A DNA stretch of 64,000 nucleotides from Myxococcota bacterium (GCA_965140415.1 OZ223209.1:3392001-3456000); one strand, 5' to 3'; positions 51,067-59,370 are shown, numbered from the stretch's first letter. Numbers and translations are program-made. Notes: a model not told the origin generated them from the letters alone.

Positions 51067-51358
51067 AGTTTTCTTGCCTTTTAGGAAAAAAGGAACAATT
51101 TTCTGTGAATTTTCTATCATAGGTTTTTAGGATTTGCTATCAGACGAGCGAAAAGCGATAAATATCGCGTTTCTATTGTCGAATAGAAACATCCAATAAG
51201 GAAAGCCAACAATGACGAAACCGGTTTATTCCTATGGTAACATTATTAACATTATTGACAATTTAAATTCTTTTCTGCTATGGTCGATCAGTTCAATTTG
51301 TAAATATTGTTAGTTCGTTCTCTCATTACCATCAGAAGCTCATTTGAAAGGAACGCCC

Positions 51359-52051
51359 GTGACGCCCACCAGCCGCTATAATAATCGGATCAGTAAGCGA
51401 ATTCCCATTCACTTTGGAACACCAACCCCAACAAACCTTGGATTTATTAAAAATCTCTCGCTAAAAGGAGTTGCAATATCCAGCAGGGTGACCTATGCGC
51501 CACTTACCACAATTGCCGTGCGTATCGACCACGGGGAATACGCAATCCCTTTAGATGGCCGGGTCCGCTGGGCAGTGGACAAAAAGCAGTTACAGAGTCG
51601 CATGGTCAGCGATGCCATTGTCAATTTCGATATGGGTATTGAATTCATCAACAGATCAGACAAGTACCTGGATCTGCTTGCAGAACTCGTCAGTCATTTC
51701 GATGAAAACCGCAGAGAGCGCCGTTTCGAAATGATTCTGCGAGTCACGTTTGAAACCCCGGAGGAAGTATACCAGGAATATACCAACAACATCTCGCTAG
51801 GCGGCATGTTCATTGCCACCCGCAACCCACCACAACTCAACACCGATGTTGACGTGCAGCTTTTCCTTGGAGATATCTTAGAGTTGATCCAGGTCCGCTC
51901 ACGAGTCGTACACGTTGTCTCTGATGAGATGGCAGAAAGCACGGGAATGAACCCCGGCATCGGAATTCAGTTCATCAAGTTCCATGGAGACGATGAAACT
52001 CGCTTTCAAAAATATATCGATGAATTGAAGAGCCGCTTCGAAACCATTTAG
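51359..52051 (+). CDS. tandem PilZ-domain protein, paralog of 19369-20055
   Basis: RYNNR..NLSLKG and RRERR..NISLGG, GIGIQF; GTG start; promoter TTGACA-18-TATGGT at 51255-51284. Confidence 0.85.
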   Translation: MTPTSRYNNRISKRIPIHFGTPTPTNLGFIKNLSLKGVAISSRVTYAPLTTIAVRIDHGEYAIPLDGRVRWAVDKKQLQSRMVSDAIVNFDMGIEFINRSDKYLDLLAELVSHFDENRRERRFEMILRVTFETPEEVYQEYTNNISLGGMFIATRNPPQLNTDVDVQLFLGDILELIQVRSRVVHVVSDEMAESTGMNPGIGIQFIKFHGDDETRFQKYIDELKSRFETI

Positions 52052-52145: not shown

Positions 52146-52577
52146 TTACCAACCCTTTTTCTTTAAAATCTCATCGATTGCCTGCGCAGAACGTTCCTCC
52201 ATCAGGACCATTCGTTGAACCGCAGCATCGCCTATCATGTCTGTAAGCTTTTGAATATCAACGGGTTTCTCTAAAAACTCCGTTGCTCCGGCTTTAATTG
52301 CTTCGATCCCTTTCGAAATCGTCCCATGGCCGGTTAAAATAATAACCTGCTGATCGGCATCACCGGTAAGCATTTGTTTCAACGTTTCGATCCCATCCAT
52401 TCCGGGCATCTGTAGGTCGAGTATTACCGCGTCGAAACGATGCTCTTCAGCCAGTTTTATCGCATCCGGTCCATTGTTGGCGGTGAACACATTCAGATCC
52501 CGCAACTCCAGCCGTTCGGAAAGCGTCTCCGTAAAATCCTTTTCATCATCAACAAGCAACACTTTTGCATTTGCCAT
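52146..52577 (-). CDS. single-domain response regulator
   Basis: LLVDDE, LDLQMPGMDG, LTGHG, EKP; no output domain. Confidence 0.92.
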   Translation of the reverse strand: MANAKVLLVDDEKDFTETLSERLELRDLNVFTANNGPDAIKLAEEHRFDAVILDLQMPGMDGIETLKQMLTGDADQQVIILTGHGTISKGIEAIKAGATEFLEKPVDIQKLTDMIGDAAVQRMVLMEERSAQAIDEILKKKGW

Positions 52578-52594
52578 ATCCGAATCCTTTCATC

Positions 52595-53278
52595 CTACCT
52601 GGCAACTTCCGAGCTTTTAGGAATCGTCAATTGAATTGATGATCTTGAGTCTTCCTTACTCACAACAACTCTACCGCCACTGTCTTTCACTAATTCCAAA
52701 AACATATGCCATTCCGGCAATTTTTCAATAAAATCTCCGTTGGCATCGCACTGAAGCAGAATATTCACATTCTTCGCACCTGGTTGAATACTCATGTCGA
52801 TTGCGAGTGTATCCGATGATGCCTTCATCAGCATTTCGAGGCAAGCGAAAAGTGCATGACGAAAAGCGAAAGGATCTGCGGTTATCCGAATGTCTTCTTC
52901 CGGTGTTTCAAAATGAAATTTCGCCTGCCTTCGATCGATCAATCGGCTGGTTAAAACGTGCATATTCTCGGCAACATCGCGCACGTCAAATTCCAGTTCC
53001 GGTTCATCAACACTATGCGCAAAACGGTTCATATTGGAAATCAGCTCTTTGCCTCTTGCCACGTGGCGGGCGATATTTTCCGTGATCTTTCGCAGCTTTT
53101 CCGGTTTGATCGGTTTGCCTTTTTCCGCAAGGATAGTAAGATCCTGAAGCAGTCCCGACAATTCCCCGATAATCGTAATGACATTATTGAACTCATGAGA
53201 AACATTCGCCATGATTTTACCGAAGAACGAAAGGTCATTCTGGCGACGTTGCTCCATGTTTTTTCGTAAAATGTCCAT
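52595..53278 (-). CDS. HisKA-containing protein with degenerate ATPase domain (pseudokinase, putative phosphotransferase)
   Basis: H-box SHEFNN intact; N, G1, F and G2 boxes not recognisable. Confidence 0.75.
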   Translation of the reverse strand: MDILRKNMEQRRQNDLSFFGKIMANVSHEFNNVITIIGELSGLLQDLTILAEKGKPIKPEKLRKITENIARHVARGKELISNMNRFAHSVDEPELEFDVRDVAENMHVLTSRLIDRRQAKFHFETPEEDIRITADPFAFRHALFACLEMLMKASSDTLAIDMSIQPGAKNVNILLQCDANGDFIEKLPEWHMFLELVKDSGGRVVVSKEDSRSSIQLTIPKSSEVAR

Positions 53279-53286
53279 ACACACCG

Positions 53287-53664
53287 TTACTTTCGATAAA
53301 GCGAGATAGCTTCATTCATTTTTACGATAAGATCGTCCAAGTTGATAGGTTTTATCAAATAATCAATCGCTCCGGCCTTGAAACCTTCTTCACTGGCCTC
53401 GGGCGACATGTGACCGGTTAACAGAATTACAGGAAGTGTTGGATGAATTTCCTTAATCCGCTTCATCACTTCAACACCATCTTCACCCTTTAATTTCACA
53501 TCCAGCACGACAATGTCGAAAGACGCGTTCCGTATCTGTTCGATAGCATGGTCACCGGAATTCACACCAACTGCATCCACACCACGAAGTTCAAGGCGCT
53601 CTACCAAGGTGGAAACGAGATCATCTTCGTCGTCTACAATAAGAACCTTCAACACATCGGCCAT
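53287..53664 (-). CDS. single-domain response regulator
   Basis: LIVDDE, LDVKL, LTGH, IKP. Confidence 0.92.
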   Translation of the reverse strand: MADVLKVLIVDDEDDLVSTLVERLELRGVDAVGVNSGDHAIEQIRNASFDIVVLDVKLKGEDGVEVMKRIKEIHPTLPVILLTGHMSPEASEEGFKAGAIDYLIKPINLDDLIVKMNEAISLYRK

Positions 53665-53677
53665 ACATGTTCTCCTT

Positions 53678-55384
53678 TCACGACTGCCTCTGCACCGGTA
53701 GGGTAACCGTAAAACTTGTCCCTTTTCCGATTTCGCTTTCAACCGAGATCGTGCCGCGAAGTTTCTGAACGATTCCGTATGTGATCGAAAGTCCTAATCC
53801 GGTTCCCTTGTTTTTCTTAGTGGTAAAAAACGGTTCGAAAACTCTTTCCAGATCTTTTTTCGGGATTCCAACACCATCATCCGCAATCGTAATTGCGACC
53901 TTTTCAGAAAGGACCGTCTCGATTGTGATGATCAGCTGTCCACCCTTTTTCATTGCATCGAATGCGTTATTGATGAGGTTTAAGAACAACTGCTGCAATT
54001 GTCCTTTATCACTGTGAATTGTGGGCAACGTCTCCGACACTCTCATATCGACATTGATATCTCGATAGGATGCCTCTTTTTCCAGAAAACCCAATACATC
54101 ATGAATCAAGGCATCAATCGCGACGGGTTCGTGCTTGACATCCATATGCCGGGCAAACCCAAGTAGTCGGTGAGTGATATCGCTACAACGATTAACAGAC
54201 TGAATAATCTTATCAGTTTGTTTTACCAGCTTTTCCTTATTCGGCAAATCTCCAGACATCGCCAGGATATCCGTTATCAATCCGGCTTTCTCGTTGATAA
54301 TGGCCAGCGGGTTGTTGATTTCGTGGGCGACACCCGAGGCCAAACGACCAATGGATGCCATGCGATTGGTGTGCTCGATGTTATGGAGTGTCGCTTCGCG
54401 TCGCAGATCCGCTTCTCGAATGCGCCTTACCCAACTCGCAGTAATACGCATAATCAACAACAAAACAGCGATCACGCTCACAATCAGAATAGCCAGCATC
54501 TCTCCTTGATATGCCAACCACCCCGCCATCATATTCCGTTGGTTAACGAGGATAATGAAAATGAAAGGGGAATTCTCTATATAGGCCGAACCCATAAAAT
54601 ACTTCTGATCTTTTACGACCATTTCCTCGAACAATTCGGAACTTTCGCTATATGGAGGAATCTCACCGCTAAAGGTACCCAATGCTACACCGCAAAGCCG
54701 TGACGGTGTCTGCAAATGCCCTTCTTTGTTGATCAGAAAAGCATCGCTGTGACGTTTCGGTCCGGCGATCTGAATTTGTTTGGCTATACCCTCGATGTCA
54801 ATTGTGGCACGGAAAATCAAGGGTTTCCCTCTGGCCACATCTCGTTTGACCGCAATAATGAAATGAGGGAGTTTTCTGTGACCCAGGAACACATCACTGA
54901 CGTAGACATCTCGAACAAGAGATTTGTTGAACCAGTCCTGATCGCGGTAATCCTTGCCATGCAAATCGTAGGGACCGGCATAGGTCTGCATAATACCATT
55001 GGAATCCACCACACCGATATCAACAAGCCCGCCAAATGAACGACGCATCCGTGTAAAAATTCCTGCAAGTTTGTCCGGATCAAAAAGATCTTCCGGCTGT
55101 TCCCGAGAAACAACATATTGCGCGGCTGAAATCCGTTCCGCCAAAAACGATTCCAGCGATCGCTTTGTGATTGCTGTAATACGCTGAATGGGTTGGGTAA
55201 TTTCTTTCCGGAAGGACTGATGGTACAGGTAATAGTTAACACCGGTAATCGTTAATAATGGAATGATGCACACCGCAGCAACTGCTAAAACGGTATTGCG
55301 CCACATCCGCCGATATCGTGAAGGAAGCCCTTTGTCGTCTATCGGATCTTCAATAAAAACAAATTTTTCAACTAGCCGTCCCAA
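53678..55384 (-). CDS. membrane sensor histidine kinase with Cache-like periplasmic domain
   Basis: Two TMs, YxDQDWF and SDVFLGHR Cache-like motifs, AHEINNPL, NLINNA, DDGVG, FFTTK, GTGLGL; TTG start. Confidence 0.92.
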   Translation of the reverse strand: MGRLVEKFVFIEDPIDDKGLPSRYRRMWRNTVLAVAAVCIIPLLTITGVNYYLYHQSFRKEITQPIQRITAITKRSLESFLAERISAAQYVVSREQPEDLFDPDKLAGIFTRMRRSFGGLVDIGVVDSNGIMQTYAGPYDLHGKDYRDQDWFNKSLVRDVYVSDVFLGHRKLPHFIIAVKRDVARGKPLIFRATIDIEGIAKQIQIAGPKRHSDAFLINKEGHLQTPSRLCGVALGTFSGEIPPYSESSELFEEMVVKDQKYFMGSAYIENSPFIFIILVNQRNMMAGWLAYQGEMLAILIVSVIAVLLLIMRITASWVRRIREADLRREATLHNIEHTNRMASIGRLASGVAHEINNPLAIINEKAGLITDILAMSGDLPNKEKLVKQTDKIIQSVNRCSDITHRLLGFARHMDVKHEPVAIDALIHDVLGFLEKEASYRDINVDMRVSETLPTIHSDKGQLQQLFLNLINNAFDAMKKGGQLIITIETVLSEKVAITIADDGVGIPKKDLERVFEPFFTTKKNKGTGLGLSITYGIVQKLRGTISVESEIGKGTSFTVTLPVQRQS

Positions 55385-55421
55385 ACCCCATGAACCTCCA
55401 AGGTTACGTGCTCGCTTTCGA

Positions 55422-56633
55422 TTATTCTTTCTCTTCCTTTTTCGCTACGAGTTTCGCTTCTCTCATGGTTTTTGATAAAAGCTCGATATCGACAGGCTTT
55501 TCCAAATATGCAAAAGCACCGAGGGACATGCAGAGTTCCTTGTCTTTCTCGCTGCCATGACCGGTAAGGACAATGACTTCAACTTCTGGATGCTCTCCCT
55601 TGACACGCCGTAACACTTCGATACCATCGATTCCAGGCATCTTCAGATCCAGCACCATCACTTCCGGCTCTTCTTCTTTCAACAAGCTCAATGCTTCCTC
55701 ACCGCTATACGCGACAGCCGGCTCCATGTCGCGCATTTCCAGTCGTTCGGAAAGAGTCATTACGAAGTCTTTTTCATCGTCCACCAACAGCACCTTATCC
55801 GGCAGATCGAAATCGACATCGGCAAGAATGGAGGTCGGACGATAGTTAGGACCGGTTTTAACATTCACGTCATTCACACCATTCACCTTCCCCAAGAGTT
55901 TCTTCAACTCGGTTTCCAATTTCTCTAGACGCATGACATATTCATCGACCAGTACGGTGATAACTCCTGCCTCACAGGAAACGGCATGAAAATATCCCGC
56001 TTCAACCAGCGCCAACTCACCTTTGGCCGCAATGACGAAATCCGCAAGTGCGGCTTCGGAGGCCGCCGTATAAGCCATGATCCCTTTCTGGGCGTTTTCG
56101 ATAATCAGATCCACCGCCTTGTCAATTCCCGTCTCGTTGACCGGAATCTTCAGGTCGTACAACGTCTGATCCCAAGGCTGCACTCCAAACAGCCTTTTAC
56201 TCCATTGGGCGCGCTTCAAATCTTCTTCACGCACCTTCTGTTGCGCGGCATCCAAACGAATACCTTGTTCTTTTTTTAACTGCTCTGCCCGATATTCCGG
56301 ATCGCTCAATAGGCACACACGCAACACATGACCGATATTGCGCGGAATCAATTGCGAGGCAAACCCATGTAGAATCTGCTTATCGGCAAGCATTTCTGCC
56401 AATTGAAGTTTGAGCTTTGCAAGATTCTGCTCACGACGATGCGTGAACTTGTTAAACAGAAACGGAGGCCCCTCCATCGCCCGTGCTAATTGATCCGTTG
56501 CGATTTTGAAACGTTCCGAGGTTTTCTCGAACAGAAGGTCGTCGATTCGGTCCCATTGGGTCTTTTTCGCGATCTGATTCGCGATTTCATCAGCTTGGGA
56601 AAAAGCAGCACTGAAAATCGAAATAATAGGCAT
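55422..56633 (-). CDS. cytidylate-kinase-like domain fused to C-terminal receiver domain
   Basis: N-terminal CMK-like fold with degenerate P-loop (LRVCL, YDLKI), short beta domain, REC (LLVDDE, LDLKMPG, LTGHG, EKP). Confidence 0.8.
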   Translation of the reverse strand: MPIISIFSAAFSQADEIANQIAKKTQWDRIDDLLFEKTSERFKIATDQLARAMEGPPFLFNKFTHRREQNLAKLKLQLAEMLADKQILHGFASQLIPRNIGHVLRVCLLSDPEYRAEQLKKEQGIRLDAAQQKVREEDLKRAQWSKRLFGVQPWDQTLYDLKIPVNETGIDKAVDLIIENAQKGIMAYTAASEAALADFVIAAKGELALVEAGYFHAVSCEAGVITVLVDEYVMRLEKLETELKKLLGKVNGVNDVNVKTGPNYRPTSILADVDFDLPDKVLLVDDEKDFVMTLSERLEMRDMEPAVAYSGEEALSLLKEEEPEVMVLDLKMPGIDGIEVLRRVKGEHPEVEVIVLTGHGSEKDKELCMSLGAFAYLEKPVDIELLSKTMREAKLVAKKEEKE

Positions 56634-56701: not shown

Positions 56702-56718
56702 TGTGGTATAGTACCACA
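56702..56718. promoter_or_regulatory. palindrome forming overlapping extended -10 elements (bidirectional promoter) or an operator
   Basis: TGTGGTA-TAG-TACCACA reads TGnTATAGT on plus and TGnTACTAT on minus, between divergent genes. Confidence 0.55.
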
Positions 56719-56784: not shown

Positions 56785-59370
56785 ATGTTGACTCGATTTC
56801 TCCCCTTTTTAGAATGGTTTAAAGGGTACAATCTAGGCGCTCTTCGAGCAGACTTCCTAGCGGGCCTGACTGTTGCACTGGTTTTAATCCCCCAATCGAT
56901 GGCATACGCTCAGTTGGCAGGTCTTCCCGCCTATTATGGTTTGTACGCTTCGTTCTTGCCCCCTATGATAGCCGCCCTATTCGGCTCAAGCCGTCAACTG
57001 GCAACCGGACCAGTGGCAATTGTCTCATTGATGACAGCAGCAACGCTGGAACCTCTAGCCACAACAGGCAGCGAGGCATTCATCACTTATGCTGTTTTTC
57101 TTGCACTACTGGTCGGTCTGTTCCAGCTTTCCCTTGGTGTTTTGCGCTTGGGAGTTATCGTCAATTTCCTCTCCCATCCGGTTGTAATCGGTTTTACCAA
57201 TGCTGCGGCCATCATCATTGCAACCAGTCAGCTTTCAAAAATGTTCGGAGTGTCGGTTGATAAGGCCGAACACCATTACGAAACGATCTGGCGTGTACTT
57301 GTCGCCGCCTGGCATTTTACGCACTGGCCGACATTCATACTAGGTGTAATCGCCTTTGCGATTATGATCGTATTGAAGAAAATCAATCCCAAAATACCTT
57401 ATGTACTGGCAGCGGTTGTCGTTACAACCGTGATTTCCTGGATGATCGGACTGGAAAACAACCAGAAAATTTCGTTGGACCAAATCGATTCACAGGAAAT
57501 CCAACAGAAAATAGAGGTTTTCAACAAGGATATTAAAGACATCGAGCTAGCCTCCGAAGCCCGCGCCATCATCAATCCCCAAGTTGAAAAGCTGGAAACC
57601 TCGGGTTCCGCACAAGTCTGCATGACTTGCCATACCCAGCACGACGTCAATCTGGATCAGTTGCGAAGTGACACCCCGGTCCGCCTGGAAGAAACGGTAT
57701 TACCCAAAACAAGCATGCAACTACATGCAATGGCCGGACTTCTGGACAAACAGGTCGGTCAGTTAAAGGAAAAAGCATCCGAAGTCAGAACGGAATTACG
57801 CGATCTCGAATTCAAGAAAGTAGAATCAAACGGCTCTGTTCGATTCGCATTGTTCGATCAGGAAAACGATACGGGTACAATCTGGAGATTGAAAGTCGGA
57901 AACAAGCCGCTCGACTTGCAAAAACTGGTGTTTATCGGCGGAGGCGCCGTTGTCGGATCTATCCCCAGCGGTCTGCCAAAGCTTTCTCTTCCCAAATGGG
58001 ACTCTTCCGTTTTCGGAAGATTGTTTGTTGCAGCAATCATTATTTCGATTTTGGGCTTTATGGAAGCGATTTCGATCGCCAAAGCCATGGCGGCCAGAAC
58101 CGGTCAGCGCTTAGATCCTAATCAAGAATTGATCGGTCAGGGTATCGCCAACATTCTCGGTTCCTGCGGGCAGAGTTACGCCGTTTCCGGATCATTCTCA
58201 CGTTCCGCAGTCAACATTCAGGCAGGAGCGATTTCCGGGCTTTCCAGCGTATTCACTAGTAGTCTGGTCGTGATCGTGCTGCTATTCTTCACCCCACTGC
58301 TGTACTTCTTACCTCAATCCGTTCTCGCAGCGGTCATTATGATGGCTGTCGTGGGTCTGATCAACTTCAAGGGCGTCGTTCACGCCTACCGAGTCAAACG
58401 TTCAGACGGCATCATCAGCCTAATTTCTTTCGCTGCGACCTTGGTCTTTGCGCCACATCTCGACAAAGGCATTCTGATCGGCGTCATTTTATCGGTCGGC
58501 ATTTTCCTATACGGCAAGATGAAGCCAGTCGTCGCGGAACTGTCACTCTGGAAAGATGGTCATCTTCACAACGCAAAACGTTTGCGGCTTCAACAGTGCA
58601 AACACCTGGCGGTCATCCGCTTCGACGGTCCACTGTTCTTCGCCAATTCCAGTTACCTTGAAGATGAAGTCCTTGACCGGGTCCGCTCGTTGCCTGATTT
58701 GAAGGCGATTCTCTTCAAAGCAGACGGCATCAGCGAAATCGACGCATCCGGCGAAGATACGCTTTCCCTTTTGATCGAGCGTCTGCGTTCGGGTGGATAC
58801 GACGTCTACTTTGCAGGCTTGAACGAACGTGTCATTGATGCTCTACACCGCTCACACCTTTACGAACGTATTGGAGAGGATCATCTCTTCATGACCGTTA
58901 CACAGGCGGTAGAGGCGCTCTGGCCGAAATTGCATGAAAACTCAGATGAAAAAGCATGTCCTTTGCGTCAGGTTGTTTCTCTGGAACAAGAGATCAGCGA
59001 ACCTGCATTACGCGTGCTGCTCGTAGACGACGAAAAGGAATTCGTCGATACGTTAGCGAAACGGATGGGTCGACGCAATATGGATGTCGATGTGTGCTAC
59101 AACGGCACCGATGCTCTCCAGCATGTTCACGACAACGAGTATGACACCGTAATTCTGGATCTGAAACTCGGTAACGAACGCGGCGAGGATATCCTAATTA
59201 AAATGCAGGATATTCATCCCGGATTGTCCGTTATCCTTCTGACCGGACATGCAACGGTAGATTCCGCAGTCGAAGCCATGAAGCACGGCGCATACGACTA
59301 CCTACTGAAGCCATGCGAACTAGAGGAACTTGTCGCGAAAATTCGTCAGGCACACAGTGAAAAGCAATAG
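56785..59370 (+). CDS. SulP/SLC26 anion transporter with CxxCH-containing loop insertion, STAS and C-terminal receiver domain
   Basis: PQSMAYAQLAGLP, GSSRQLATGP, NQELIGQG, GSFSRSAVN; CMTCH at residues 279-283; STAS FDGPLFFAN; REC LLVDDE..LDLKL..LTGH..LKP. Confidence 0.92.
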   Translation: MLTRFLPFLEWFKGYNLGALRADFLAGLTVALVLIPQSMAYAQLAGLPAYYGLYASFLPPMIAALFGSSRQLATGPVAIVSLMTAATLEPLATTGSEAFITYAVFLALLVGLFQLSLGVLRLGVIVNFLSHPVVIGFTNAAAIIIATSQLSKMFGVSVDKAEHHYETIWRVLVAAWHFTHWPTFILGVIAFAIMIVLKKINPKIPYVLAAVVVTTVISWMIGLENNQKISLDQIDSQEIQQKIEVFNKDIKDIELASEARAIINPQVEKLETSGSAQVCMTCHTQHDVNLDQLRSDTPVRLEETVLPKTSMQLHAMAGLLDKQVGQLKEKASEVRTELRDLEFKKVESNGSVRFALFDQENDTGTIWRLKVGNKPLDLQKLVFIGGGAVVGSIPSGLPKLSLPKWDSSVFGRLFVAAIIISILGFMEAISIAKAMAARTGQRLDPNQELIGQGIANILGSCGQSYAVSGSFSRSAVNIQAGAISGLSSVFTSSLVVIVLLFFTPLLYFLPQSVLAAVIMMAVVGLINFKGVVHAYRVKRSDGIISLISFAATLVFAPHLDKGILIGVILSVGIFLYGKMKPVVAELSLWKDGHLHNAKRLRLQQCKHLAVIRFDGPLFFANSSYLEDEVLDRVRSLPDLKAILFKADGISEIDASGEDTLSLLIERLRSGGYDVYFAGLNERVIDALHRSHLYERIGEDHLFMTVTQAVEALWPKLHENSDEKACPLRQVVSLEQEISEPALRVLLVDDEKEFVDTLAKRMGRRNMDVDVCYNGTDALQHVHDNEYDTVILDLKLGNERGEDILIKMQDIHPGLSVILLTGHATVDSAVEAMKHGAYDYLLKPCELEELVAKIRQAHSEKQ

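Follow-up and report, generated by a model that had tools for sequence, protein, structure and literature searches.

A predicted heme c stalk in the TM7-TM8 loop of a SulP-family transporter from a Myxococcota bacterium

A sulP gene in a 64,000-nucleotide stretch of DNA from a Myxococcota bacterium (GCA_965140415.1 OZ223209.1:3392001-3456000; the window) encodes an 861-residue transporter that carries a CxxCH motif, C279-M-T-C282-H283, in a 166-residue stalk inserted between transmembrane helices (TM) 7 and 8. The stalk is predicted with good confidence to hold a covalently attached heme c. We put the chance that this heme senses the periplasmic redox state or a ligand and tunes sulfate uptake at roughly 0.5. 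The original prediction, made from the window sequence, had placed a heme c motif in the loop of a SulP protein, and its position was exact. The coordinates of all features are collected in Table 1.

The protein is a member of the SulP/SLC26 family with a UraA-type core and gate fold and a C-terminal STAS domain. The Pfam model Sulfate_transp (PF00916, 362 bits) matches in two parts split around the loop, TIGR00815 scores 454.7 bits (cut-off 380.45), and Pfam locates the STAS (PF01740) and receiver (REC) domains at residues 604–708 and 744–854. A Pfam match to MtrC/MtrF is weak (E 0.026) and below the cut-off. The AlphaFold2 model of the whole protein (mean predicted local distance difference test score (pLDDT) 81) matches 7v73 and 7lhv with E ~1e-28 and a TM-score of ~0.8 of the target. 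The solved SulP/SLC26 proteins (AtSULTR4;1, 7LHV; prestin, 7V73; SLC26Dg, 5DA0; BicA, 6KI1) have the same fold and STAS domain, and the sulfate-site residues of AtSULTR4;1 and its TM8 proton glutamate are also shared. They differ from the window protein, which adds the CxxCH stalk and the C-terminal REC domain. Alignment with AtSULTR4;1 equates its Q112, Y116, A153, E347, and S390-R393 with Q37, Y41, A78, E427, and S470-R473, and each of the mapped sulfate-site and proton residues is kept in 54–55 of 55 full-length heme-type proteins, as we call those with the motif. The AtSULTR4;1 site residues alone do not determine selectivity (PMC8298490). The window protein, which has the SULTR-type site residues, is best explained as a predicted H+/sulfate importer of a sulfate-reducing bacterium. 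It is the only SulP in the genome; a blastp search of the genome's open reading frames (ORFs) returned only the protein itself.

The motif is conserved wherever the loop is long. A search with the loop region matched 280 proteins, of which 120 were listed and classified. Among the matches listed, 38 proteins have a loop of ~170 residues, all with CxxCH at the same place, and 82 have a loop of ~145 residues, none with the motif. Addition of two further searches and six locus ORFs gave a pooled set of 203 sequences, 170 of them spanning the loop; one of the searches feeding this set used a profile that favors the motif. CxxCH is present in 64 of 64 pooled loops of at least 150 residues and in 0 of 100 medium loops (~140 residues). 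The remainder is one CxxCH loop that aligned at 138 residues and five short or partial rows without the motif. Locus L006 lies outside the parsed protein set, though its motif is seen, and P0144 was dropped as an unrelated repeat protein. The independent check used 66 metagenome loci seeded by six peptides of protein P0061 from outside the motif, 15 of which did not span the loop. CxxCH together with a downstream histidine was found in 17/17 long, 0/25 medium, and 0/9 short loops, and many of the 17 long-loop loci are close relatives of one another. The proposal that insertion-bearing homologs conserve CxxCH is thus borne out in every long-loop homolog of both sets. In ordinary SulPs the same alignment span is 3–5 residues (21 of 21, parsed from 30 loci).

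Thinning to <70% identity gave 38 non-redundant heme-type loops. C279, C282, and H283 are each present in 38/38, and the two X positions are filled by 27 different residue pairs. Exactly two cysteines occur in 58 of 65 heme-type loops. An accidental origin of the motif in a single divergent loop could be argued from the fact that one CxxCH arises by chance in large genomes, and 32 ORFs of at least 300 residues in this genome have exactly one. However, when the loop was shuffled 100,000 times with its 2 Cys and 3 His retained, CxxCH appeared in only 28 cases, the motif is invariant in 21 loops <50% identical to each other, and it is perfectly linked to a sub-insert at the hairpin tip. Chance origin is extremely improbable and is ruled out by the conservation of CxxCH across homologs.

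About 140 residues of the insertion also occur in a heme-less SulP form that is widespread, which leaves ~30 residues (274–304) as heme-specific. The 82 heme-less loops lack residues 274–304 and also lack the conserved pattern of H314 (36/38 in the non-redundant heme-type loops), A317 (34/38), and G318 (37/38). Sequence comparison indicates that the heme-specific element is the ~30-residue insert plus a remodelled helix face. The long loop of the original prediction is therefore real when set against ordinary SulPs, but most of it is common property of the heme-less form. Heme-less homologs of 706–718 residues (Desulfovibrionaceae, Desulfobacterales, and others) are 55–61% identical to the window protein, and the stalk is present. 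This form is probably group Ci of the SulPs of sulfate reducers, equated by length and taxa alone; group Ci proteins are ~710 residues with an insertion (Marietou et al. 2018, PMC5840216). That insertion is given as ~90 residues with an extra TM helix, and the main text of the paper is without the words 'heme' or 'cytochrome' (PMC5840216). The window insertion differs in being soluble and in having the extra ~30-residue CxxCH tip. An extra TM helix of the group Ci kind was not seen in the hydropathy profile or in the models of the window loop. The new element appears to be the ~30-residue heme insert, the SulP family being already known and the heme-less stalk form probably so. The claim that a TM-heme loop-STAS-REC architecture was undescribed holds, as far as the literature searches reach, for the heme insert; it does not hold for the loop, whose heme-less form is probably the described group Ci, and the REC domain is not tied to heme. 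Our literature searches returned no paper that joins SulP/SLC26 with heme c, with most subscription journals outside their coverage. Heme c occurs on other transporters (FTR1/PbrT-type iron permeases and anammox ammonium transporters), examples that the searches did not confirm.

In AtSULTR4;1 three loops, two of them extracellular and one intracellular, connect the core (TM1-4 and 8-11) with the gate (TM5-7 and 12-14), and the link between TM5 and TM6 is also on the extracellular side (PMC8298490). Counting helices from this structure places the TM7-TM8 loop outside. The charge bias has the same sense, with 3 K/R and no D/E in the TM6-7 link and 1 K/R and 3 D/E in the stretch after TM7. Homology and charge bias together predict that the loop is extracytoplasmic, in agreement with the original prediction. 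The loop is without a hydrophobic segment (mean hydropathy ≤0.2 in windows centered at 224–374). Modeled alone with AlphaFold2 it has a mean pLDDT of 82, mostly ~90–97 in the long helices, and forms a hairpin of antiparallel helices 237–272 and 307–340 with the motif helix 276–284 at its tip and a low-confidence segment 285–306. Pfam did not find a Cache domain in the loop, and the confident part of the model is a long helical hairpin rising from a small beta base. Fold searches with the loop gave nothing at E 0.001 in Foldseek and no usable match in the ESM Atlas. VIA-align returned tied generic hairpins (Z 9.3–10.4) with no cytochrome among the 50 matches listed, an absence that excludes nothing. 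A predicted complex of two loop copies with heme scored 0.01 and was counted neither for nor against.

Both histidine and methionine residues downstream of the motif had been proposed as distal heme ligands, and the conservation data separate them. His314 (codon 57724-57726) is likely the sixth (distal) ligand. The distal histidine pattern, 25–34 residues past the motif, is present in 70 of 72 proteins, and the remaining two have a nearby histidine. A methionine ligand was ruled out by poor conservation of Met311 (57715; 3/38) and Met316 (57730; 23/38). The heme-less stalk loops (e.g. P0037-P0065) have a histidine one position past the H314 column in 41 of 82 cases, and many have a histidine near the hairpin tip.

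The maturation genes expected for a heme c protein are represented by the cytochrome c synthase CcsA, which has the WWD motif and scores over the PF01578 cut-off. A 458-residue ORF upstream of the CcsA gene is CcsB-like by position alone. CcsBA requires little more than CXXCH (PMC8112865), and a periplasmic CxxCH in this host should therefore be loaded with heme. The genome also encodes 15 multiheme ORFs with at least 5 CxxCH motifs or close to it, and 12 ORFs of at least 300 residues have at least 2.

In the Rad50 zinc hook a CxxC motif caps an antiparallel coiled coil. The window stalk has the same arrangement, the Rad50 hook structure 7zqy is among its generic hairpin matches (Z 9.4), and no cytochrome fold is among the fold matches listed. 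These points favor a motif that binds zinc or forms a disulfide, either as a mononuclear Cys2His2 site or as a Rad50-like hook that shares Zn2+ between two tips. However, the Rad50 match is tied with ~50 unrelated hairpins, and the histidine directly after CxxC (38/38) is unneeded by a hook or a disulfide. The stalk also differs from the Rad50 hook in its second conserved histidine, its extracytoplasmic location, and its motif on a short modeled helix. The predicted location of the site is also the compartment in which CXXCH is processed by CcsBA. A zinc site or disulfide is improbable on these grounds.

The host is likely a sulfate reducer that uses the reductive route. Its genome encodes sat, aprA, and dsrD adjoining dsrA, plus a second Dsr-like gene, and the sat, aprA, and dsrD/dsrA genes make reductive sulfate respiration likely. 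The nearest named relatives of the protein are from Myxococcota metagenome-assembled genomes, and among the matches listed the heme type includes a single protein each from Acidobacteriota and Planctomycetes. A phylum sample of 401 genomes was searched for the loop and for DsrA. Loop matches were found in 11 genomes, 8 heme-type and 3 heme-less, and DsrA was over the cut-off in 17, which include all 11 genomes with a stalk SulP. This query did not detect the loop in any of the 384 genomes outside those 17. Genome G040 has its heme-type sulP immediately upstream of a compact set of genes for sulfate reduction (L032, G040:C80:3000-22999), which comprises cysG, a CGGC protein gene, sat, qmo-like genes, aprA, a LysR gene, dsrAB, and genes for DsrL-like and DsrN-like proteins. 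DsrD was not found in genomes G040 or G003.

Periplasmic heme c sensors include DcrA, GSU0582/GSU0935 (PMC8396549), and sCache_heme (PMC12889525). They likewise carry a single c-type heme on the periplasmic domain of a membrane protein, and in sCache_heme a short CXXCH helix is inserted into an existing scaffold (PMC12889525), as the window stalk appears to be. They differ in having PAS or Cache folds, a sixth ligand that is Met, Cys, or water, and output to chemoreceptors or kinases, whereas the window stalk is built as a helical hairpin that projects from a secondary transporter, and its sixth ligand is probably His. The sensing function given even odds above is proposed because the stalk lies in the gate-core linker ahead of TM8, the protein is the host's only SulP, and related membrane proteins sense redox state or gases through one periplasmic heme c (PMC8396549, PMC12889525). 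In the proposed mechanism, the loop would be exported and CcsBA would attach heme to C279 and C282. H283 and H314 would serve as axial ligands, with the heme packed against A317 and G318. Periplasmic multiheme cytochromes or oxidants would set the redox state of the iron, or alternatively a small ligand would displace His314. The change at the tip would move the descending helix, and because the stalk joins the gate (TM7) to the core (TM8, with E427) this movement would bias the transport cycle. Sulfate, which is activated at the cost of ATP, would be imported when reductant is available, and import would stop under oxidizing conditions. The fused REC domain would be a second, cytoplasmic input from the neighboring kinase. 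A stronger version, which we think less likely than not, is a secondary transporter gated directly by a bis-His heme c, whose redox or ligation state would turn dissimilatory sulfate reduction on and off at its first step. The stalk would then also be a new minimal heme c fold that moves between sulP genes by recombination.

Several observations weigh against heme-based sensing. The heme-less stalk forms are the majority (100 of 165 examined) and occupy the same operon, which indicates that heme is not required for transport. PF01578 is over the cut-off in 8/8 heme-type genomes, and the 10 stalk-bearing genomes besides the host all have it whether or not their SulP is of the heme type, so the presence of the synthase does not discriminate. 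Six of the 8 heme-type genomes belong to one order and are not independent. The hairpin tip is poorly predicted (pLDDT 45–60). Such a tip could be what a missing cofactor would give in a model, and it has no value as evidence. The tip is far from the membrane, which makes coupling to gating speculative. Finally, electron transfer would be as natural a role as sensing for a stable bis-His heme.

This last point leads to the alternative that heme c is attached for electron transfer or structure, as a bis-His low-potential center that docks periplasmic cytochromes or stabilizes the tip and leaves the transport cycle unaffected. The invariant His/His pair and the many multiheme cytochromes in the genome fit this role, and in sCache_heme proteins stable axial ligands accompany a redox function and not the binding of gases (PMC12889525). 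However, a lone heme on a transporter without another redox center has no evident electron sink, and the heme is placed within the gate-core linker of a protein equipped with REC or additional STAS domains. We regard a purely electron-transferring or structural heme as quite unlikely.

The identity and control of the sulfate importers of sulfate reducers are unsettled. Their assignments are called speculative, and none of three D. vulgaris SulP genes is essential (PMC5840216). Here a single SulP tracks DsrA across the phylum sample. A stalk heme, if real, would provide a spectroscopic handle on sulfate uptake, and a heme-bearing SLC26 protein would be a new way of regulating the family. For sulfate reducers outside the classical Desulfobacterota, it would also point to a means of handling shifts in redox conditions. 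The loop is small and soluble, and the natural heme-less versions are controls.

The heme module is found in several protein contexts. REC fusion occurs in 25 of the 38 heme-type proteins among the matches listed; in the rest its place is taken by a single STAS domain or several, and a REC fusion is also present in one protein without heme motif, P0102. A tie between heme and REC fusion was ruled out by the heme-type proteins without REC and by P0102. Heme-type SulPs with tandem STAS domains are 1040–1500 residues long and have no receiver (P0027, P0031, P0044 with 6 STAS stretches, P0128, P0187, and L023:367-3498). The P0061/P0197 group combines TM1-7 and a loop nearest to the heme type with a TM8-14 segment that is 82% identical to that of heme-less L009. 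P0061 and P0197 (loci L067, L078, L079, and L082, with a tetR-sulP operon) are thus probable recombinant mosaics as judged from their sequences, and heme-type TM1-7 and loop on a heme-less C-terminal half suggest that the module is portable and retained. On a tree of the whole core built with the loop columns left out, 3 changes are needed to explain the heme label. A reduced tree, which left out the two mosaic rows and 23 others (near-copies, long branches, and most outgroups), does not reject a single heme clade (approximately unbiased test, p-AU 0.52) and fits either gain or loss of the heme insert.

Table 1. Features of the sulP gene and its surroundings in the window.
Feature	Coordinates	Strand	Remarks
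sulP gene	56785..59370	+	861 aa; SLC26/SulP membrane domain, periplasmic stalk (predicted), STAS, receiver domain
TM1-TM7	56833..57447	+	aa 17-221; sulfate-site residues Q37, Y41, A78
TM7-TM8 insertion	57451..57948	+	aa 223-388, 166 residues; small beta-rich base and antiparallel helical hairpin
Ascending stalk helix	57493..57600	+	aa 237-272; common to heme-less forms
Heme-type-specific sub-insert	57604..57696	+	~aa 274-304, hairpin tip; missing from heme-less forms
CxxCH motif C279-M-T-C282-H283	57619..57633	+	on a short helix (aa 276-284); probable site of heme c attachment, with H283 as proximal ligand
Descending stalk helix	57703..57804	+	aa 307-340; returns via beta base to TM8
L313-H314-x-x-A317-G318-L319	57721..57741	+	probable distal His ligand; small residues share helix face
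TM8-TM14	58003..58521	+	aa 407-579; proton-coupling E427 and S470-F471-S472-R473, every one 55/55 in the heme type
STAS domain	58594..58908	+	conserved C605 inside; H717 and C725 just downstream
Receiver (REC) domain	59008..59346	+	D748-D749, D792, T820, K842 all present
Perfect 7-3-7 palindrome	56702..56718	.	between sulP and divergent signaling genes
Cytidylate-kinase-like + REC protein	55422..56633	-	first gene of divergent signaling cluster (Pfam)
Membrane histidine kinase	53678..55384	-	Pfam
Stand-alone receiver protein	53287..53742	-	Pfam
HisKA-like, kinase-like helper	52595..53284	-	no Pfam HATPase match; kept in L017-L019
Stand-alone receiver protein	52146..52577	-	Pfam
Tandem PilZ-domain protein	51344-52051	+	converges on signaling cluster; no such gene seen there in L016-L019

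Most of the divergent five-gene signaling set (52146-56633) recurs beside sulP in loci L016-L019 and L022. Behind tetR-sulP it also occurs in the same orientation, both in the heme-type loci L067, L078, L079, L082, and L095 and in heme-less L025. These genes bear on the alternative that a real heme c signals to the co-encoded Cache-type kinase instead of gating transport, the stalk contacting the periplasmic domain of the kinase and the transporter acting as a co-sensor that feeds the receivers, including its own REC. The cytidylate-kinase-like/REC gene, the kinase, and the receivers stay beside sulP whether divergent or co-oriented, the heme-less forms retain the stalk, which suggests a shared partner, and sulP clusters have been tied to Cache kinases (PMC11887813). 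However, the 10 kb of L024, a heme-type locus, yielded neither receiver nor kinase motifs, and the heme-type gene of G040 has sulfate-reduction genes on one side and the contig end on the other. Signaling to the kinase is an unlikely role for the heme. Kinase homologs beside other sulP genes match dCache_1, and the window copy has no dCache_1 match at E 0.1.

The Desulfobacteraceae sulP cluster (Sci Adv 2025, PMC11887813) is like the window in its Cache-type kinase, response regulators, and upstream palindrome. The window differs in having no tetR neighbor, signaling genes that are divergent, and one receiver fused to the transporter. The word 'heme' is missing from the main text of that paper (PMC11887813). 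No tetR was present among the neighboring ORFs scanned in the window. The window palindrome is retained within 2 mismatches in L016-L018 and could be an operator or two overlapping divergent extended -10 elements. A role as a genome-wide regulon site was rejected, the palindrome having a single genome copy at 0–1 mismatches.

The cytidylate-kinase-like/REC gene adjoins sulP in both heme and heme-less loci; besides the window, it is found beside sulP in L016-L019, L026, L067, L078, L079, L082, and L095. That its product senses an adenylate or a sulfur nucleotide is speculation. The HisKA-like helper is possibly a pseudokinase or a phosphatase. We take the REC residues listed in Table 1 to have the roles of the corresponding receiver motif positions. 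C605, H717, and C725 (58597-58959) are kept in 55/55 heme-type and 83–85 of 86 heme-less proteins, and in the tandem-STAS SulPs this Cys/His/Cys trio repeats with every STAS copy. The trio is a possible cytoplasmic metal site, disulfide, or redox switch, as suggested by its conservation.

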